Source: a virus | Lineage: Duplodnaviria; Heunggongvirae; Uroviricota; Caudoviricetes | IMG/VR virus record: IMGVR_UViG_2711768044_000004 | DNA: 45,498 nucleotides | Strand: one strand, 5' to 3' | Notes under the pieces: model-generated | What the model saw: only the letters and a program-made list of their open reading frames with translations | What the model was told of the DNA's origin: nothing | Databases searched by the model: none | Program-made: the position numbers and the translations under genes | Part shown: piece after piece, positions 1,931 to 40,773 of the stretch | How positions within the stretch are numbered: position 1 is the first letter of the stretch | Layout: each line of letters starts with the position of its first letter

Positions 1931-2539
1931 TCAGTTTGCAGGCCATCCGACGACATAACTGCGGATCGCCTTCAGCTCTGTCAGCGCCTCAACCTCTGCT
2001 TTCATCTGAAGCTGACGTGTATTAATCTCCACACCTTTCGCAAACATCGCCTGCTCTGTCGCATCTGCCAGCGCAATTATCTCCGCCGCCGTTACCGGCA
2101 CCACATTATTATCCCCGTCCGTCCAGGCAAAACCTTCCGGAAGACGGTTGTTCTCTGCCATCAGTCGTGTCGTGCTTATCCTGGACAACGTCTTCTTGCC
2201 GTAATCCCAGTTCCTTCCGTTGAATTCCATCACGTATTCCATATTCTCCTGCACATCACGCCAGATATTAATCTCTTCCCGTTTCGCCGCCTTTGCCGCT
2301 TCCACTACTGCAGCCGTGGCAACAAAGGCGGTCACACTTCCGTATGTTCCTGCTGTCAGACCAGACCATAAGGCTTTTCCGTGTTCAGTATTATCCGTTT
2401 CCGTTGCGGTATACGGCAGCCATACCGGCTCTCCTTTTTCATTGACCGCATCTTCAAACTGCACCTCACAGTTTATCCCGCCGTATTCGTTGTAGGCTGC
2501 ATTTCGTACTGCAATAATCTCTTTTCCCTTATCCACCAT
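1931..2539 (-). CDS. Tail fibre assembly protein (Tfa-like chaperone)
   Basis: 202 aa; position immediately after the side tail fibre gene; sequence resembles lambdoid Tfa proteins. Confidence 0.75.
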   Translation of the reverse strand: MVDKGKEIIAVRNAAYNEYGGINCEVQFEDAVNEKGEPVWLPYTATETDNTEHGKALWSGLTAGTYGSVTAFVATAAVVEAAKAAKREEINIWRDVQENMEYVMEFNGRNWDYGKKTLSRISTTRLMAENNRLPEGFAWTDGDNNVVPVTAAEIIALADATEQAMFAKGVEINTRQLQMKAEVEALTELKAIRSYVVGWPAN

Positions 2540-2546
2540 GACCTCC

Positions 2547-3740
2547 TCATGATATGCGCTGAAATAATCCTGCCTGTCTTATGCCTGCAGCAGATGTCCA
2601 TATAACCGGACCACATGCACGCCACGTGCCCGGTAAACGGGTATCCCCCACACGAGAGGAAGCAATCAGAGGAGTTCCATCCGAAAGGCAACATGCAGAC
2701 AGTGATGAGCCGGCAATGGCTGCGCCCGGTGCCATATCCCCCGAATAACTCGTCGCATAATACGCCGCAAGGACAAAAGAACCGACACCAAACAGTCCGC
2801 TGTCAGGACTTCCTGACGGTCCCTGTGGTCCTGCCGGGCCTGTGGCTCCCGTATCCCCTTTTGGCCCCTGTGGTCCTGCCGGGCCTGCAGCTCCCGTATC
2901 TCCCTTCGGTCCCTGCGGACCTTCCGGACCTGTAGCTCCCGTGTCTCCCTTTGGCCCCTGAGGTCCTGCCGGACCTGCGGCTCCCGTATCTCCTTTTGGC
3001 CCCTGAGGCCCTGCCTGACCTGCGGCTCCCGTATCCCCTTTCGGTCCCTGTGGACCTGCCGGACCTGTGGCTCCCGTATCACCTTTTTGACCCTGAGGCC
3101 CTGCCGGGCCTGCAGCTCCCGTATCCCCTTTCGGCCCCTGTGGACCTGCCGGGCCTGTATCCCCCTTGTCGCCCTTCGGTCCCTGTGGTCCGCCCGGATC
3201 GCCCTGCTCACCTTTCGGACCGGTATCCCCCTTATCGCCCTTGTCACCTTTATCCCCTTTCGGCCCCGGTGGCCCTGCCGGGCCTGTATCGCCCTTGTCC
3301 CCCTTCTGTCCCTGTGGACCAGTTGCTCCGGTGTCGCCTTTCGGTCCCTGTGGCCCCACGGCAGTTTCGGCTTTCCCAGCAGCTTCTCGCGCCCTGCGCA
3401 CAGCCTCATCCGCCGCCGCTTCCAGCTTCTTCAGTGCATCAGGGTAATACGCTGCATCCGTTTCACGGAGCAGAAAGGCATTCAGGGTGCCTGGTTCGTC
3501 GTCGGCCATGACATCAATCTCGCCGGCGCATGCCGGCTGACGACCTTCCACGCACAAGGTCACACGATAACGCCCCGGCTCAACCTGCATGCTGTAACTG
3601 CCAGTTTCGCCTGGCTGGTGCTCTGCCACCGTGGTGACTATCACCGTCTCGCTGGTTCTCACGGCTTTCAGCTCTATGGTACAGTCCGGTACCGGTTTTC
3701 CTGTACCATCCTTCAGCACACCTGAAATCTGTACTGACAT
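2547..3740 (-). CDS. Side tail fibre protein with a long collagen-like Gly-X-Y region
   Basis: 397 aa; about 60 consecutive G-X-Y triplets ([11 protein letters not shown]... repeats) between a conserved N-terminal region and a short C-terminal domain. Confidence 0.8.
2810..3360. repeat. Tandem DNA repeats of roughly 45 bp encoding the collagen-like triplets
   Basis: Near-identical repeated units visible in the DNA; also produce several long artefactual ORFs in other frames. Confidence 0.8.
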
Positions 3741-3754
3741 ATTCCCCCCACAAA

Positions 3755-3785
3755 AAAGCCCTCCAGAACCGGCGGGCTGTCATTA
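3755..3785 (-). terminator. Weak hairpin plus U-run between lom and the tail fibre gene
   Basis: Imperfect inverted repeat followed on the minus strand by tttttt. Confidence 0.3.
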
Positions 3786-3804
3786 CTCTGTGTTACCAGG
3801 CTAA

Positions 3805-4404
3805 TCAGAATTTATAACCGACCCCCACAATGAAACCGTCAGTGCGCCAGTCGCCACTGCCGGAGCCTTCATAAGCAATATCAATGGCCACGGATTCTGT
3901 CGGGTTAAACTGCACGCCAGCCCCCCATGCCAGAGACGTGTTGCTGTAGCGACCATCATCACTTCCGGTCAGCACATCGTGTGTTTTCCCCTTGTTGTCG
4001 GTCACCTGGAGATAATATCCGGAAAAGGTGGATACACGGCTGTAAGCCACCCCCGCCATCGCATACAAGCTGAACCCTTCATTCACGCGTACAGACGGTC
4101 CCGCCATCATGCTGAACCAACGGTTACGCACAGAGTCTTCATGCCAGCGGCTATCACTGTAACGGGTAAGCTGGCGATTCCTGTCTCCTGCATAGCTGAA
4201 TGACGTCACCAGCCCCAGCGTGTCCGTAAATTCATAGCGGTATTTCACGTTGAATCCTGTTAAATCATCACTACCGTACATATCAGAATGAATATGAAGA
4301 TACCCGGCACTCAGTGTGGAGGGATGCTCTGCTGCACCTGCGGGCGCGCCCGCAGCAACCAGCAAGACGACTGCAGACAAAATAACAGTACATAATTTAC
4401 GCAT
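3805..4404 (-). CDS. lom: Lom/Ail/PagC-family outer membrane protein
   Basis: 199 aa with a signal-peptide-like N-terminus and beta-barrel-like alternating pattern ending in a C-terminal Phe; sits just after J as in lambda. Confidence 0.8.
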
Positions 4405-23084: not shown

Positions 23085-23552
23085 TTATTTCATACACTGA
23101 GTGCGGATATATTCCTGCGCCCCTTCCAGTTGCTTCTGCATCGTTATCAGCCGGTCTCTGAGGGTGAAATAATGCCGTTGAGCTGTGTCTGCCAGTCGGG
23201 GGCGGGCTGCATTATCCACGCTGGCGGTGCCGGTGGTTTTATCTGTGGTGGACACACAGGTGGCGTTGACGCGCAGGCTGCGGCGACCAGCGGCAACATC
23301 AGCGCGCAGAGTTTCATTTTCAGCTTTCGCATCGGCTAACTCCTTCGTGTATTTTGCATCGAGTGCAGCAACATCACGCTGGCGCTGCTGCATGTCAGTA
23401 ATGGTGGCGTTCGCCAGCTTCAGTTCACTGGCTTTTTTATCGCGCTGCGCTTTGTAGGTAATGGCGTTATCCCGGTAGTGGTCTGTTGCCAGCCACAGCG
23501 CACCGCAGGCCACCAGGAGGACAACTGCCACTCCGGCTAAGATACGATTCAT
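23085..23552 (-). CDS. Rz: Inner-membrane spanin Rz
   Basis: 155 aa; N-terminal membrane anchor, coiled-coil body, strong resemblance to lambda Rz (..[16 protein letters not shown]..). Confidence 0.9.
23147..23332 (-). CDS. Rz1: Outer-membrane lipoprotein spanin Rz1, embedded in Rz in the +1 frame
   Basis: 61 aa; lipobox-like LVAAAC and Pro-rich ...[27 protein letters not shown] as in lambda Rz1. Confidence 0.85.
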
Positions 23553-24082
23553 TCATCAATTCCCCAGCACGCCAGCGCACTTTCCTGGTCACGCCGCGAC
23601 ACCTGCCCGTAACAGTTATTTGAGCGGTTCCGGCAGTCTTTACCGCCGTCATATATCCAGCGACGGATTTCAGCACATGCACCTTTCCGGTCTCCGGCGT
23701 TCAGTTTCCGGTAAAACGTTGAGGTGAAGCATTTCGACGGCCCGATGTTGTACGGACAGAATGACGCGATGCCCGCTTTCTGCTGTTCAGTCAGTGGCAC
23801 TTTGATGTTTTTCTCCACCCATGCCAGCGCCTTATCCCGTTCGATGGCGTTCACTCGGTCGCATTTTTCCTTCGTCAGCTTCATGCCGGGGACTACAGGT
23901 CTGCCATCCACCCGGGTGGCACCACGGCAGATAGTCCATATACCTGCGCCATCACGGTATGCAGTAGTGTGGTTGCCTTCTTTTTCATCCAGAAACTGGT
24001 CAAGGATTTCAGGCGCAGAAGCCCCTGCGGAAATCAGTGCCAGAACGGCAGCCGACAGGCCGTATTTGATTTTTGCGTTCAT
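23549..24082 (-). CDS. Signal-anchor-release (SAR) endolysin, T4-lysozyme fold (GH24)
   Basis: 177 aa; weakly hydrophobic Gly/Ala-rich N-terminal segment followed by a lysozyme-like domain, as in phage 21 R. Confidence 0.8.
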
Positions 24083-24194
24083 GGATATTTATCAGGATTT
24101 ATCGGTTCCGAATCCCTGGATATGTTAAGACTTCATCCCGCCAGTGGTGGGCACTGGCCAGGGTATGTCAATCTGATAAACACAGAGGTGACTA

Positions 24195-24454
24195 TGGATT
24201 ATCCAAATCTACCAAAACAAACTTTTGCTGATTTAATCGCACTCAGGCAAGCTGTCGTAGCTCTAATCAACTTGTTGCCGGATAATGAAAAGGAATTCGT
24301 TAAAACAATTCTTAACAGAACTGCCGCCGATTTTTCATCATTCCCACTGACAGATGACCTTGCGGACCTTCCTGAATTAATTGCAGAGTCCTCCATTAAG
24401 CTTACTGAAGAGATTTACTCTCCTCAAAAATCTTCACAAAATTCCTGCGAGTAA
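24195..24454 (+). CDS. Hypothetical 86-aa protein on the strand opposite to the late genes (possible moron)
   Basis: ATG preceded by AGAGG ribosome-binding site; lies in a locally AT-rich island; no recognisable homology. Confidence 0.35.
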
Positions 24455-24605
24455 CTTCAATACAATAATCGTAAAACGCTGCAAACTGCTCATCGCGGCG
24501 TTTTTTTTCATCTTCGGAAGGAATCTGCACCGACAATTTTTTATTCAGTTCAGCAATTTCATTTTCCAGGCGACTTATGCGCCGATTCATTTCTTCAGGG
24601 TTCAT
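24402..24605 (-). CDS. Hypothetical 67-aa coiled-coil protein translationally coupled to the holin
   Basis: ATG 4 nt after the holin stop with a GGGGAG ribosome-binding site; overlaps the 3' end of the opposite-strand ORF. Confidence 0.4.
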   Translation of the reverse strand: MNPEEMNRRISRLENEIAELNKKLSVQIPSEDEKKRRDEQFAAFYDYCIEVTRRNFVKIFEESKSLQ

Positions 24606-24608
24606 CGT

Positions 24609-24821
24609 CTACTCTCCCCGCGCCGACTTACGCCGGTCTTCTTTAATTTTGAAATACAGGTTCGTCAGGTATGTCAGCAGACCAAACAGCAGGCTCCCCA
24701 GCACGCCTATCGCCGTCCACTGTGAAGGCGTCACCTTATCCAGCAACTGAAACAGCCAGTAACCCGTTCCCACCGCCGATGAACCATAGGACACACCTGT
24801 TGCCAGTTTATCCATCTTCAT
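24609..24821 (-). CDS. Phage-21-type pinholin with dual-start motif (Met-Lys-Met)
   Basis: [70 protein letters not shown] closely resembles my recollection of S21; GGAG ribosome-binding site upstream. Confidence 0.8.
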
Positions 24822-24886: not shown

Positions 24887-25270
24887 TTATGGCAAAGGCT
24901 GCGCTTCCGCCATACCCTCGCTCCCCGCAGTACCATTGTCTGTCGCTTCACCGCCTGTCGTGGTGGCAGTGCCACTATGCGCCTCTGCTCCTGAAGTATC
25001 CGTTCCCGGCTCCGGTGATGCTCCCGTGCCTGCGGTGGACGCAGCAGCCGCATTTTCAGTTACCGCAGGTTTTTCCTGCGTCTCCGCCACACCAGTATCA
25101 CCTGGCGTCGTCGCCGTCAGACCGGCAAGTGCCACTCTGACTTCCTCATCAATCTGTTTGCTGATGATTTGTCTTACCTGTGCTTCCACAACATTCAGCA
25201 CCACCTGTGCTGACAGCGCCTGTTTCAGTACCTCTGTCGTGACAAGTCCTGTGGTTTTCACTTCTGCCAT
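24887..25270 (-). CDS. Hypothetical protein with a structured N-terminus and a Thr/Gly/Ala/Glu-rich low-complexity tail
   Basis: 127-aa ORF in the late operon orientation; no recognised domain. Confidence 0.45.
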
Positions 25271-25304: not shown

Positions 25305-25487
25305 TTATGGCAGTGGCTGGTTAACTGACTGCATCGTGGATGATGATGCGTATTTAACTTTCTCTGCCGCTGCATCATCAATTTTGCGGCGGACATAATT
25401 ACGTATTACCTTATATCCGCCACTCACCAGATATAACGCACACACCACCGTGCAGAAATACAATAAAATAAGCTGTAAAAATGTCAT
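25305..25487 (-). CDS. Small membrane protein (60 aa, one predicted transmembrane helix)
   Basis: ATG with strong GGGAGGG ribosome-binding site 5 nt upstream; hydrophobic N-terminus followed by a basic segment. Confidence 0.55.
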   Translation of the reverse strand: MTFLQLILLYFCTVVCALYLVSGGYKVIRNYVRRKIDDAAAEKVKYASSSTMQSVNQPLP

Positions 25488-25629: not shown

Positions 25630-27570
25630 TTACGCGTTATTCACTTCCACCAAAATGCTGTCAATCAGTACCGGATACGTTGCATTACTGGTGATATCGG
25701 TCAGGCGTAACTTGTCTGCCGCAAAAGAACCGACAGGTGACTGAGACAGCATGAACGGTTCCTCGTCCTTACCATCAATCACCGGCGTCACCTGAATGCT
25801 GTTATTACCGGCAAAACGGAATGCCAGCGTATGCCACTCGTTATTAAATGCACCGAATGAACCCAGCTTCGTGTTCTGGTCTGGATTCCCCTTGTGATAC
25901 ATCACGTTAAGGTCTGTGGCATCGCTCTGAACGTAAAACGATGCCAGCAGGTTATGACCGGCATTACCTTCCAGTGTGACGCCCTGAGGCAGCGAAGAAA
26001 CCGGCCAGTACAGCGCCAGTGCGTACTGATTAGCCGTAAGCGCGCCATCAAGTTTAAAACGGCAGCTGACAAGGCCACCTTTTTCCAGCAGGTCGGCACC
26101 ATTACCGGCATCATGCTGCATAAACCATGACTTTCCGGTCTGTTTTGTCAGCTTCAGCGCCTTGCCCCCGCTGGCACCGGCATCATCCACAATAGCGGCA
26201 CTACCGCCTTCTGCCCCCCAGCCCTGTGGCGTCAGTGCTCCGCCTGACTCCGATGCACGGTAAGAAAACAGCGTCGTCATTGATTTCCCGTCCGTTGACG
26301 GTGTTGATGGCGTGCCAGTGGATGGCTTCTCATCCGGTGGTGTCACAGCCTGTCCACCCATAACTTCAGCCGTGCGTCCCGCATGGAGCAGAATGGCTGA
26401 GGACAGACGGTCAGAAATGATGCCCCTGCGTGCCCATGAGCTGAAATGGCTGTCACGCTGTGTGGAGACAAAACTGCCCTGGGTACGGGATGCCGCACCG
26501 TAATACCCGACAGCCACAATATCCGGGTCTTCCGCCGGAGCATTCGTTGGCGTGTTCTGTCCATTCTCATCCGTCAGGAACGGCACAAAGAAAATATTCT
26601 GTGCGGTCAGATTTTTATATGCGCCATAGACTGTTTCATACTGCGTGGCATACGTGTTTTTCCAGTAATACGTGGTATCACCACAAATCCACGGCACCGT
26701 GGCAGCATTTCCACTCACGCACTGCGCTGCAAGTGGAGACAGGTCGGTTCTGAACTGCTGAACCATGGCTGTGAATAAACCATTATGCTGCTGACTTCCT
26801 GAAGCAAGGTCTGCCTCTCCCTGCATCCATACCACAGCCAGTAATCTGTTTTTCTGGTTCTTCTCCAGCGCCGCTCTGGTGCGGCTGAGCAGGTCCTGAT
26901 ACAGGGGTTTACCGGCTCCCCAGCGTGAAGAATCAGCGGAAGCACCGCTGGCCTCACTGAATGAGCCGTCATCCCCGGTGGTGAATGCCGAACCACCACG
27001 ACAGCAGGGAACCAGAAGTATCCCGGCATTCTGCGGAATATAAGGCAGCAGTTTTTTGGCAATATGCAGCCCCTGACCGACACAACCATACTGCCCTTTA
27101 CTCAGGTCAGCTTTAGGGTGGTTTATCCCGCTCATGTCCTGCACATCATGCAGGCAGTGGTCTGCCGGAATGACATCATTATAAGAACAGGCTTCGCCAC
27201 CCGGCGTTACCGTACTGCGGCGTGACAGTTGCTTAATGCGCGGCTCTGTGCGGTCAAATGAATCCGGTAACGGAAGCCCTTCACCGTAGGCCATGCCATT
27301 TGACTGCCCGGCGAGTACCACCACGTAGTAATAGTCAGGTGCACCAGAGGTTATTGTGGTCTGTGAACCATCACCGTCATCAGGAACTTCAACAGGAATC
27401 CTGACTTCACCTTCTGCGGCAACAGCCTGAATAAACTTCATCCCGTTATCGTCATACGAAGTAAACGGCGAACCATATGGCTGCCACCCTTCACTTATTT
27501 TTTCTGACAGCTTTTTTTGCAGTTCATCACCGCTACTGGCAGAAACCAGATCGTAATGTTTAAACGCCAT
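25630..27570 (-). CDS. Prophage-type sialate O-acetylesterase (NanS-p-like, SGNH/DUF303 esterase)
   Basis: 646 aa from the ATG with a GGAGG ribosome-binding site; GQSNG esterase motif near the N-terminus; occupies the position this gene family holds downstream of stx in Shiga-toxin phages. Confidence 0.7.
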   Translation of the reverse strand: MAFKHYDLVSASSGDELQKKLSEKISEGWQPYGSPFTSYDDNGMKFIQAVAAEGEVRIPVEVPDDGDGSQTTITSGAPDYYYVVVLAGQSNGMAYGEGLPLPDSFDRTEPRIKQLSRRSTVTPGGEACSYNDVIPADHCLHDVQDMSGINHPKADLSKGQYGCVGQGLHIAKKLLPYIPQNAGILLVPCCRGGSAFTTGDDGSFSEASGASADSSRWGAGKPLYQDLLSRTRAALEKNQKNRLLAVVWMQGEADLASGSQQHNGLFTAMVQQFRTDLSPLAAQCVSGNAATVPWICGDTTYYWKNTYATQYETVYGAYKNLTAQNIFFVPFLTDENGQNTPTNAPAEDPDIVAVGYYGAASRTQGSFVSTQRDSHFSSWARRGIISDRLSSAILLHAGRTAEVMGGQAVTPPDEKPSTGTPSTPSTDGKSMTTLFSYRASESGGALTPQGWGAEGGSAAIVDDAGASGGKALKLTKQTGKSWFMQHDAGNGADLLEKGGLVSCRFKLDGALTANQYALALYWPVSSLPQGVTLEGNAGHNLLASFYVQSDATDLNVMYHKGNPDQNTKLGSFGAFNNEWHTLAFRFAGNNSIQVTPVIDGKDEEPFMLSQSPVGSFAADKLRLTDITSNATYPVLIDSILVEVNNA

Positions 27571-27767
27571 TATTCCTCCCCTTGCCGGGATTATCCTGAA
27601 CAGTTCGGCTGCACGGAGATTCAAAGAAGATAACTGCAGCCCACAAAACGAAAAAGGCCACGCAGTTGCGCAGCCTTATAAGAGATGGTAAAAATCAAAA
27701 AAATAATAACGAAAATATCTTGTTTATATTCATGCGACCTGCCCGTACCCACTATGGGCATTTTTCC

Positions 27768-27794
27768 CATAAAAAAGCCCCTCCGGAGAGGGGC
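27768..27794 (-). terminator. Strong intrinsic terminator between the tRNA cluster and the esterase gene
   Basis: Minus strand GCCCCUC-UCCG-GAGGGGC followed by UUUUUUAU. Confidence 0.5.
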
Positions 27795-28061
27795 TGGTAT
27801 ACGCATTCATTTCCATCATCTGCATGGTGCCGGGTGCCTCCCGGTGAGTTCAGTATCAGCACCTGAATCCGCGATTATCCCATATACCTACTCGCTGATT
27901 GCCCCTCCGCACAGGGGGATTCACCATGCAAAACTTTTTTAACAACTCTCCGTCAACCAGACAATCATCAACTGCCTGAATTGTGAGGCATTTAACATTT
28001 CACTGTCCGGTGTCTTTCCTGTAATAAAAAGCCCGCAAAAGCGAGCCAGGGAAAATAAGTG

Positions 28062-28138
28062 TGGCGCGTTGTACTGGATTCGAACCAGTGGCCGATTGCT
28101 TAGAAGGCAATTGCTCTGTCCGGCTGAGCTAACAACGC
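28062..28138 (-). tRNA. tRNA-Arg, anticodon UCU (reads AGA)
   Basis: Hand-folded cloverleaf: acceptor GCGTTGT, D-arm GCTC/GAGC, anticodon loop CTTCTAA, T-loop GGTTCGAATCC, 3' CCA. Confidence 0.75.
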
Positions 28139-28141
28139 TGA

Positions 28142-28218
28142 ATACCGATAATGGACCGCCATCGGGGACCCGCCCCCCGCGCAACCAGCTTCGAAGGCTG
28201 GCGCTCTGTCCTGATGAG
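28142..28218 (-). tRNA. tRNA-like gene, apparent anticodon UCG (Arg) with a non-canonical T-loop; possibly degenerate
   Basis: Acceptor CCGCCAT/ATGGCGG and D-arm and anticodon stems pair, but the T-arm is CGGGG-GGCGGGT-CCCCG rather than the usual TTCRANY loop. Confidence 0.45.
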
Positions 28219-28225
28219 CTAATGG

Positions 28226-28301
28226 CGGTATGTGATGGTGGCCCTTGCTGGATTTGAACCAGCGACCTGGCGATTATGAGTCGCTCGCTCTCACCACTGA
28301 G
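28226..28301 (-). tRNA. tRNA with CAU anticodon (Met or lysidine-modified Ile2 type)
   Basis: Hand-folded cloverleaf: acceptor GGCCCTT, anticodon loop CTCATAA, T-loop GGTTCAAATCC, 3' CCA. Confidence 0.75.
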
Positions 28302-28360
28302 CTAAAGGGCCGGGAGCAGAATAATAATGGTGCGTAATTAATTCTGCAATCTCATCCGTT

Positions 28361-32411: not shown

Positions 32412-32567
32412 TTACTCCTCAGGTTCGTAGACTGTGAAGACAGCGACCTCCGTCTGGCCGGTTCGGATTCGTACCTCGCAGAGGTCTTTCCTCGTTACCA
32501 GTGCCGTCACTATGACGGTTAAACAGATGACGATCAGGGCGATTAACATCGCCTTTTGCTGCTTCAT
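32412..32567 (-). CDS. hokD: Hok-family type I toxin (51 aa), apparently identical or near-identical to K-12 HokD/RelF
   Basis: MKQQKAMLIALIVICLTVIVTALVTRKDLCEVRIRTGQTEVAVFTVYEPEE matches my recollection of HokD. Confidence 0.85.
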   Translation of the reverse strand: MKQQKAMLIALIVICLTVIVTALVTRKDLCEVRIRTGQTEVAVFTVYEPEE

Positions 32568-32624
32568 AGCCTGCTTCTCCTTGCCTTTCGGCACGTAAGA
32601 GGCTAACCTACGCGTGCAAGTCAT
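32412..32624 (-). CDS. mok-like overlapping reading frame that would couple hok translation
   Basis: In-frame upstream extension of hok (70-aa ORF) as in hok/mok/sok loci. Confidence 0.45.
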   Translation of the reverse strand: MTCTRRLASYVPKGKEKQAMKQQKAMLIALIVICLTVIVTALVTRKDLCEVRIRTGQTEVAVFTVYEPEE

Positions 32625-32834
32625 AGATATGGCCTCAGATTAATGTTAAGCGTCTTGCCGGACGCGTAATGTTAACTGGGGCTTTTCTCTATCTGCCTTT
32701 TGGTGTTCATGCCTGAGACAGATAGCCCCAAGCACCCGCAGCGATTCTACAAAAACAAACTATTATTTTCTATCCCCCTTCACAGTCTCATTTCTGACTA
32801 TACTCATCGTTCACACAACACAAAAGGTATAAAA

Positions 32835-40720: not shown

Positions 40721-40773
40721 TTTCTGGTGACGTTTGGCGGTATCAGTTTTACTCCGTGACTGCTCTGCCGCCG
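40721..40773 (+). ncRNA. dicF: DicF small RNA (translational inhibitor of ftsZ in K-12)
   Basis: tttctggtgacgtttggcggtatcagttttactccgtgactgctctgccgcc followed by a T-run; matches the DicF sequence as I remember it apart from about one base at the 3' end. Confidence 0.75.

Follow-up and report, generated by a model that had tools for sequence, protein, structure and literature searches.

Organization of the Locus between the Holin and Endolysin Genes

The sequence analyzed in this work, IMG/VR virus record IMGVR_UViG_2711768044_000004 (class Caudoviricetes; 45,498 nucleotides (nt), the whole stretch being hereinafter referred to as the window), carries a lambdoid late region, lysis cassette included, on its minus strand, according to the gene order read within the window. 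Attention was focused on the interval between the genes of the S21-type class II holin and the SAR-type lysozyme (endolysin), where an open reading frame (ORF) of 86 amino acids (aa) on the plus strand and an ORF of 67 aa on the minus strand converge (Table 1). In the initial annotation this interval had been described as an AT-rich island of about 520 bp with two convergent small ORFs overlapping by about 50 bp, and the measurements agreed with that description: both ORFs were present, the interval was 526 nt long, and the overlap (24402–24454) was 53 nt. The good ribosome-binding site (RBS) noticed before the plus ORF corresponded to GAGGTG at 24185–24190, 3 nt upstream of the ATG codon. A start coordinate given earlier was off by no more than one base, and the remaining statements about the sequence held.

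The GC content of the 526-nt interval was 0.413 versus 0.520 for the whole window, which is the 2.6th percentile of all segments of this length, and both small ORFs had a GC content of 0.39 versus 0.53–0.57 for the holin, endolysin, Rz and DUF826 genes, so the interval is indeed more AT-rich than the flanking lysis genes. The ATG codon of the 67-aa ORF (24603–24605) was located 3 nt past the TAG stop codon of the holin gene (24609–24611), and the sequence GGAGAG (24612–24617) was found 6 nt upstream of this ATG; judging by this arrangement, translational coupling of the 67-aa ORF to the holin is plausible. The hydrophobic N-terminal segment of the endolysin was recognized directly from reading of the sequence.

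Table 1. Features of the holin–endolysin interval and of the neighboring late genes, with their positions in the window.
Feature	Position	Strand	Remarks
Gap from holin stop to endolysin start	24083–24608		526 nt
Shared leader	24083–24158	plus	76 nt; upstream of the plus-strand cargo
Cargo-specific segment	24159–24462	plus	GAGGTG RBS, 86-aa ORF and 8 nt beyond the ORF
Plus ORF, 86 aa	24194–24454	plus	predicted acidic three-helix protein; phrog_2572
Minus ORF, 67 aa	24402–24605	minus	predicted stand-alone two-helix module
Terminator-like hairpin	24473–24508	.	AAAACGCUGC–12-nt loop–GCGGCGUUUU, then a T-run (8 T, 24501–24508)
S21-type class II holin	24609–24821, from the M-K-M dual start	minus	PF04971, E = 2.7 × 10−32; flanking context, outside the cassette
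SAR-type lysozyme (endolysin)	23549–24082	minus	PF00959, E = 6.6 × 10−27; flanking context, outside the cassette
Rz	23085–23552	minus	PF03245
Rz1-like ORF	23147–23332		embedded in Rz
DUF826	24887–25270	minus	late region
DUF1378	25305–25487	minus	late region
SASA-family esterase	25630–27624	minus	late region

The Plus-Strand Gene

The 86-aa protein matched phrog_2572 over its full length (positions 1–86 of 86, E = 3.2 × 10−49). Within E. coli, the plus ORF was 84–98% identical everywhere, and a search with the single sequence reached only relatives of at least 84% identity; a profile search was required for the more distant homologues. The first such search, made against 1.8 billion representative proteins, revealed the diverged homologues P0074 (93 aa) and P0075 (89 aa), which likewise match phrog_2572, and the second added P0080 as well as P0081, P0082 and P0083 from Salmonella enterica. 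The distant homologues P0074, P0075, P0080, P0082 and P0083 had an identity of 41–49% and a similar length. Three subfamilies were distinguished, namely, A (E. coli, 86 aa), B (E. coli, 89–93 aa) and C (Salmonella and related bacteria, 93 aa), which were mutually 41–49% identical, with a conserved N-terminal half, and the ATG or GTG start codon aligned behind an RBS in all three. A scan of species-representative genomes added only one real extra locus, since the plus-gene family belongs to strain-level accessory content.

Selection was evaluated between the subfamilies, because the variation within E. coli was uninformative in this respect. In the part of the plus gene outside the overlap with the minus gene, synonymous divergence (dS) between subfamilies was 0.8–2.2 and non-synonymous divergence (dN) was 0.29–0.45, with a dN/dS ratio of 0.18–0.51 (mostly 0.2–0.37), and the excess of synonymous changes was significant in each comparison (Fisher p = 6 × 10−4 for A–C, 3 × 10−4 for A–B and 3.5 × 10−6 for B–C). 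Comparison of the six reading frames in the same alignment revealed that the frame of the plus ORF was free of stop codons, with the lowest ratio of non-synonymous to synonymous differences (pN/pS = 0.49) and, at 2.21 per column, the highest BLOSUM62 score, and the differences by codon position were ordered 2 < 1 < 3. The second best was the antisense frame sharing the wobble position (pN/pS = 0.59, BLOSUM62 score 1.78), which is interrupted by a stop codon in the Salmonella L105 allele (four loci, L105–L108). The initial annotation had named a lack of purifying selection in both frames, or a standard non-coding spacer in relatives, as findings that would speak against it. Purifying selection was evident in the plus frame when the subfamilies were compared, so this stretch cannot be regarded as a standard non-coding spacer; judging by its pattern of divergence, the 86-aa plus ORF is a real gene that evolves as a protein.

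The product of this gene is acidic (pI 4.3; 4.3–4.6 in the family). In the AlphaFold2 (AF2) model, it contained helices at residues 8–26, 30–48 and 56–74 (mean pLDDT 70) and a disordered tail at residues 75–86, which corresponds to the overlap with the minus gene; the protein would be cytoplasmic. No match for the 86-aa protein was found in Pfam, NCBIfam, PADLOC, PDB sequences (profile search) or among folds. Fold searches with the AF2 models gave no significant match (best E = 1.6), and none at all for the two-helix module of the minus ORF. The label DUF1823 (PF08853), which is present in the records of PhiR12 phages, was rejected: the score was 13.2 bits (E = 0.11) versus a gathering threshold of 25 bits, and the best score in the plus-protein family (E = 0.024) did not reach this threshold either.

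The Minus-Strand ORF

The minus ORF had been presented earlier as one of two small genes in an acquired segment. This view was retained with a refinement: the ORF is not an orphan but a C-terminal module of the YdfR family. Its 67 residues form a discrete module that constitutes the C-terminus of proteins of 169–211 aa with an N-terminal DUF1327 domain, and the same module forms the N-terminus of a 213-aa protein of a Stx2a phage. Profile matches were obtained with phrog_36381 (positions 1–60, E = 2 × 10−26), phrog_2091 (positions 121–183, E = 2 × 10−25) and phrog_1085 (positions 117–174, E = 2.8 × 10−15). The DUF1327 profile itself (PF07041; 93 positions, gathering score 25 bits) gave no match to the 67-aa ORF even at E ≤ 0.1, whereas the long relatives scored 118–159 bits against it. 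No Pfam, NCBIfam or PADLOC membership was found for the 67-aa protein, and a literature search on DUF1327 together with holin and endolysin, or on PhiR12 phages, revealed nothing relevant.

In the near-identical locus of E. coli strain 155 (99.8% identity), the RefSeq annotation (PGAP) marks this ORF as a partial pseudogene of the 'YdfR family' with a missing N-terminus. Meanwhile, its N-terminal stretch, MNPEEMNRRISRLENEIAELNKKLS, shows homology to the true N-termini of proteins of phrog_36381 and phrog_15975; thus, the ORF starts at an inherited codon and not at a methionine that happens to lie inside a longer frame. The identical 67-aa protein was found on 393 contigs, a second intact 67-aa allele (P0022, 88% identical) occupied the same place after an S21 holin, and a 71-aa stand-alone variant was located downstream of another S21 holin. 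The 73-aa stand-alone forms of the Salmonella type had a dN/dS ratio of 0.2–0.33 in pairs with a dS of about 0.4. The AF2 model of the 67-aa protein contained two long helices (residues 3–27 and 31–66) with a mean pLDDT of 91. Probably, the 67-aa ORF is an intact small gene despite the pseudogene label.

In locus L004 (E. coli O145 RM9154-C1), an IS3-family element (3070–4283) was found inside the long YdfR gene, where it separates the DUF1327 part from the block comprising the module and the plus gene.

Convergent Overlap across Loci

In all 108 loci, which were recovered via the plus gene, this gene converges on and overlaps the last codons of a minus-strand reading frame of about 70 codons. 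The overlap was 53 nt in subfamily A, 59 nt in subfamilies B and C, and 61 nt in four copies with a 2-nt insertion. Three genomic contexts were distinguished. In the first, the minus ORF stands alone after an S21 holin (the window, L001 and L007); in the second, which comprises most E. coli loci, it is fused in frame to DUF1327 proteins of 169–243 aa in the interval between the holin and the SAR endolysin; in the third, found in Salmonella-type prophages, a stand-alone 73-aa ORF is coupled to an Rz-like DUF2514 gene at the far end of another lysis cassette (two holins and a GH19 endolysin), before the gene of the small terminase subunit (DUF1441/Nu1 type). The last 17 codons of the plus gene and the hairpin following it are situated within the minus gene, and the two genes are therefore interlocked and inherited together.

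Leader and Terminator-like Hairpin

Two elements were recognized in the leader: a candidate sigma-70 promoter, with the −35-like TTTATC (24098–24103) and the −10-like TATGTT (24121–24126) separated by a 17-nt spacer, and a hairpin of 7 bp, GCCAGTG-GTGGG-CACTGGC (24140–24158). The TTTATC–17 nt–TATGTT element is conserved across subfamilies, and its role as a promoter is treated as a hypothesis drawn from the sequence. A 23-nt motif at 24081–24103 was 87–91% conserved beside the homologues of the Salmonella type, which have no endolysin gene next to them, and approximately the first 10 nt of this motif were also present at the ydfR/rrrQ junction of K-12.

The terminator-like hairpin begins 18 nt past the plus stop codon in the window (18–24 nt across loci) and lies within the minus-strand codons for KKRRDEQFAAF. 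In the window it folds with an energy of −12.4 kcal/mol (z = −3.4); for the commonest haplotype the value is −14.6 kcal/mol (z = −4.0). The hairpin was found in all three subfamilies, with 98.6% of the cells paired, and one compensatory change, G-C to A-U, was present in subfamily B.

Two small RNAs were considered at this place and rejected. A match to GcvB RNA (RF00022) at 24332–24509 (+) scored 19 bits versus a threshold of 42 bits (E = 0.11) and was treated as chance; it ends at the T-run of the hairpin and was probably driven by the terminator-like 3' end. The anti-sRNA AgvB of enterohemorrhagic E. coli (EHEC), like AsxR, is encoded at the PR' moron site downstream of Q (PMC4104026), and its presence at this locus was rejected because the published site is the PR' moron region rather than the lysis cassette.

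Absence of the Insert in K-12 and Alternative Cargo

Comparison with the lysis cassettes of related prophages, which had been proposed as a check, revealed a counterpart without the insert: in the Qin prophage of E. coli K-12, essQ, ydfR and rrrQ are tightly packed, ydfR overlaps the start of rrrQ, and neither the module nor the plus gene is present. Coming from the endolysin gene, the homology between the window and K-12 extends to 24092; toward the holin it starts again at 24610, so that in the window the cassette (24093–24609) replaces the ydfR of K-12 Qin. Relative to K-12, each cassette type was located at the junction of the ydfR 3' end and the rrrQ start: in subfamily B, a block of 580 nt is inserted within the last ydfR codons, and in the long forms of subfamily A, about 660 nt replace the last 30 ydfR codons. 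Among 5,426 complete E. coli genomes, a match to 80% or more of the 526-nt gap was present in at least 294, and a match to part of it in 710.

The endolysin start of K-12 Qin is translationally coupled to ydfR via an ATGA overlap. In the window, the closest upstream late-strand stop codon is 320 nt from the endolysin start (24082), and the endolysin ATG has no clear Shine–Dalgarno sequence; therefore, the insert may lower or change endolysin translation.

Other cargo was found at the same place, namely, a 104-aa ORF (phrog_1853; orf6 of Stx2 phage 86) and an ORF of about 210 aa (Stx1a phages and L114). The phages with other cargo matched both flanks of the window but not the middle (24159–24462), which was therefore defined as the cargo-specific segment. 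On the left, the homology covered the endolysin gene and the 76-nt leader, which was 85–93% identical in these phages (L005, L111, L112 and L114), and ended exactly at 24158. On the right, it began some 10 nt ahead of the hairpin, at 24463 (24421 in Stx2a phage L005); Stx2 phage 86 (L112) shared only the leader flank, with a right-hand match from 24601. The 86-aa and 104-aa cargo proteins are not homologous, as judged by hhalign (probability 0.1%).

The ORF of about 210 aa is treated differently in two records. In L111 (Stx1a phage LC567819), the plus ORF of about 210–233 aa (1862–2563, +) is unannotated and overlaps the 3' 250 nt of an annotated 263-aa YdfR-like gene (2312–3103, −), whereas the L114 record annotates the equivalent plus ORF of about 210 aa as a gene, with a minus ORF of only 71 aa. 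The two annotations are probably not both correct, and antisense read-through may have produced the long minus ORF of L111 as an artefact.

Interpretation and Alternative Explanations

With moderate confidence, the locus is interpreted as an acquired cassette of about 0.52 kb (24093–24608) within the late lysis operon of a lambdoid E. coli prophage, which comprises two genuine small genes arranged tail to tail and occupies a moron-type slot. The suggestion of acquired cargo made in the initial annotation is thereby supported: the insert is absent from K-12 Qin, and the unit of about 0.5–0.6 kb occurs in three genomic contexts. The plus-strand part of the cassette, which is antisense to the late operon, would form a self-contained unit consisting of a leader with a weak promoter-like element, an RBS, an ORF and a terminator-like hairpin. 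On the minus strand, the 67-aa two-helix protein, which represents the C-terminal extension of long YdfR-family proteins in stand-alone form, would be co-transcribed with the lysis genes and is probably translationally coupled to the holin. Because the leader and the hairpin flank are common to phages with other cargo, the site behaves as a promoter-to-terminator slot; such a slot would be fixed, and its cargo would be exchanged by recombination in the conserved flanks. The plus gene presumably has a promoter of its own that is active most likely in lysogens, and its transcript would be terminated at the hairpin, which may also stop late-strand read-through that is not antiterminated. The cassette appears to be accessory and not part of the core lysis machinery. 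It is compatible with normal lysis, since the isolated viable phages 2H10, PhiR12_1/2/5, PhiR5_1 and PhiR63_1 carry both ORFs intact.

Several observations weigh against this interpretation. Among 28 E. coli haplotypes, variants of the plus ORF were synonymous in 9 cases and non-synonymous in 20, none of them a stop, and within the E. coli subfamily its pairwise dN/dS ratio was 0.6–2.2, with very few changes. Eleven of the 86 copies of the plus gene were damaged, seven by an ATG-to-ACG change and four by a 2-nt insertion, which fits an accessory, dispensable function. The promoter candidate agrees with the consensus at 7 of 12 positions and was not flagged by the consensus scan. The hairpin was not flagged by the terminator scan either, since its loop is atypically large (12 nt) and exceeds 8 nt; its covariation amounts to the single compensatory change, which was equalled in 57 of 500 shuffles, and its conservation could be partly due to the conserved KRRDE..AA peptide. 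The linkage of the plus and minus genes was shown in one direction only, because all loci were recovered via the plus gene. Finally, the cross-subfamily similarity of the minus module was limited to E = 7.6 × 10−5 over 20 residues in hhalign for the Salmonella type, with nothing for subfamily B, and was essentially confined to the hairpin-encoding stretch and the tail. Thus, the plus gene is the better-conserved partner, and the 'pair' might consist of a conserved plus gene and whatever minus frame reads into it.

The damaged copies were of two kinds. The ACG change (equivalent to window position 24195) was found in L059–L061, L072, L080, L083 and L086, where the remaining ORF is intact and the coiled-coil segment of YdfR has a 7-codon in-frame deletion (176 versus 183 aa). 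The GA insertion near the plus stop codon (equivalent to window position ~24449) was found in L026, L033, L040 and L053; it frameshifts both genes, extending the plus ORF to 137 aa and reducing the YdfR frame to its last ~18 codons, which shows decay of the cassette in some prophages.

A rather doubtful alternative is that the plus gene alone is functional. The 67-aa ORF would then be what is left of a dead YdfR-family gene, its frame still open only owing to its youth or to its position antisense to conserved plus-gene sequence. The PGAP call ('YdfR family protein, incomplete, missing N-terminus'), the absence of DUF1327, a dN/dS ratio of 0.55–0.72 within the subfamily and the narrow cross-subfamily homology of the minus ORF agree with a remnant. 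A remnant would hardly be expected, however, to retain an N-terminus matching genuine ones and a good RBS with a start 3 nt past the holin stop codon, and the spread of the identical protein, the intact 88%-identical allele in the same position, the stand-alone 71-aa and 73-aa forms, the latter with a low dN/dS ratio, and the confident AF2 model also argue for a maintained gene.

Functional pairing of the two products, in which the plus protein, produced from a separate promoter, binds and antagonizes the late coiled-coil module or the long YdfR that carries it and in this way tunes lysis timing, RNA decay in lytic growth or exclusion of related superinfecting phages, is unlikely. A unit of about 0.55 kb does move as a whole among three contexts and two genera, always with both reading frames, and the plus protein is acidic whereas the Salmonella-type module is basic (pI 8.0); physical overlap alone, however, accounts for the co-inheritance. 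The module does not need the 86-aa partner, since it is also found with unrelated cargo (104 aa and ~210 aa). Residues 1–72 of K-12 YdfR, the N-domain, bind the catalytic half of RNase E, and YdfR co-purifies with RNA (PMC13232886); a long YdfR with the module may therefore act on RNA, but the RNase E-binding domain is absent from the 67-aa ORF of the window. No matches to defense or toxin–antitoxin families were found: the anti-phage defense models of PADLOC matched neither the window ORFs nor their homologues, except for a single weak match to HamA (E = 0.007) in the 174-aa long YdfR of L098.

A more far-reaching version, in which a constitutively produced acidic three-helix protein neutralizes or redirects the late YdfR-type module and the two form an unrecognized two-protein system across E. 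coli and Salmonella prophages, is quite unlikely; the long forms of the module carry DUF1327, which is linked to RNase E binding. Were it true, the prophage would gain control over when lysis occurs, how late mRNA decays or whether related phages are excluded, and the leader and terminator would represent a general 'plug-in' slot for exchanging antagonists.

It is very unlikely that the locus acts primarily as a cis-antisense or terminator device, whose transcript pairs with the late mRNA in the holin–endolysin interval and whose bidirectional hairpin stops read-through that is not antiterminated, thus limiting endolysin and spanin expression in lysogens, the ORF being secondary. The convergent orientation, the hairpin on the late strand as well (−12.5 kcal/mol, followed by UUUU), the conservation of leader and hairpin whichever cargo lies between them and the endolysin-associated antisense RNAs of other phages, such as PAK_P4as15 (reviewed in PMC12197685), are consistent with such a device. 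Nevertheless, protein-level selection on the cargo ORF indicates that the plus protein matters, the Salmonella unit is located after the last lysis gene, where it would be unable to insulate the endolysin, and no RNA family matched, the GcvB score being far below its threshold.

Extremely improbable is a chance antisense 'shadow' frame in a non-coding spacer or decayed gene: the uninformative variants within E. coli, the largely open opposite frame and the lack of a Pfam or NCBIfam match for the plus ORF would fit it, but homologues at 41–49% identity keep length, start codon and RBS, the synonymous excess is significant (p down to 3.5 × 10−6), the codon-position order is the one expected for the plus frame, and the opposite frame is broken in the L105 allele.

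Other RNA Genes of the Prophage

A match to the small RNA STnc100 (138 bits) and three tRNA genes were found at 27765–27957 (−) and 28065–28311 (−), just upstream of the SASA-family esterase gene. In Stx-like lambdoid prophages this is where the PR'/moron region usually lies, which is the site of AgvB and AsxR in EHEC (PMC4104026). In addition, Rfam revealed a match to the sok antitoxin RNA at 32562–32737 (−; 111 bits), which implies a locus of the hok/sok type, and to DicF RNA at 40722–40773 (+; 72 bits).

Comparison with Known Systems

Convergent type I toxin–antitoxin loci with overlapping 3' ends are known from prophages of Bacillus subtilis, namely, txpA/RatA and bsrG/SR4. The locus resembles them in that the convergent prophage units overlap at their 3' ends and would share a bidirectional terminator; unlike them, both partners here encode conserved soluble proteins, there is no small hydrophobic toxin, and the locus is not known to encode an antisense RNA. 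A type I toxin–antitoxin system was rejected, both products being hydrophilic (GRAVY −0.18 and −1.03), and no match to sok-like or other RNA families of Rfam was found at the locus of the 86-aa and 67-aa ORFs.

The position of the 67-aa ORF, directly after the class II holin and before the endolysin, corresponds to that of YdfR in K-12 Qin (b1555; DUF1327, PF07041), and its membership in this family is reflected in the N-terminal DUF1327 of its long relatives and in the 'YdfR family' label of PGAP. In contrast to K-12 YdfR (103 aa), the ORF of the window has no DUF1327 and consists only of the C-terminal two-helix extension that YdfR lacks. Both ORFs are already present in public databases as hypothetical proteins (WP_071528021, phrog_2572, 'YdfR family').

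The loci with orf5 and orf6 of Stx2-converting phage 86 and their equivalents in Stx1a and Stx2a phages have the same order, i.e., S, a long YdfR-like gene, a convergent plus ORF and R, and have the 76-nt leader beside R and the coiled-coil module in common with the window. The difference is that the 104-aa cargo of orf6 (phrog_1853) is unrelated to the 86-aa protein and is separated from the minus gene by a gap of 11 nt, without overlap.

The closest parallel is provided by the morons of lambdoid phages, a concept of Hendrix and Juhala, such as bor of phage lambda, which is located downstream of and convergent to Rz. As in these, an extra unit that runs against the late operon and has a terminator-like hairpin downstream is situated between conserved late genes, is present or absent among relatives (K-12 Qin lacks it) and differs from its flanks in base composition. 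The homologous Salmonella unit, like bor, is found after Rz and before the terminase genes, whereas the unit of the window differs from bor in its location between holin and endolysin, in having its 3' end and putative terminator embedded in late-strand coding sequence, and in leader and terminator-like flanks between which at least three alternative cargo ORFs occur.

Textbooks already describe morons that converge on lambdoid late genes, and nothing in the present data suggests a new kind of biology. The analysis adds the recognition of both small ORFs as probably genuine genes, a family defined across E. coli and Salmonella, a conserved overlap with an embedded hairpin, and leader and hairpin flanks that frame alternative cargo. 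The annotation can be corrected in that the 86-aa ORF, which is omitted or labelled DUF1823 in some phage records, represents a genuine protein family. The locus offers a handle on the unexplored YdfR family, situated between holin and endolysin in many lambdoid and Stx phages, and, compared with the known lambdoid morons, provides an example of moron exchange and probable expression antisense to essential late genes.

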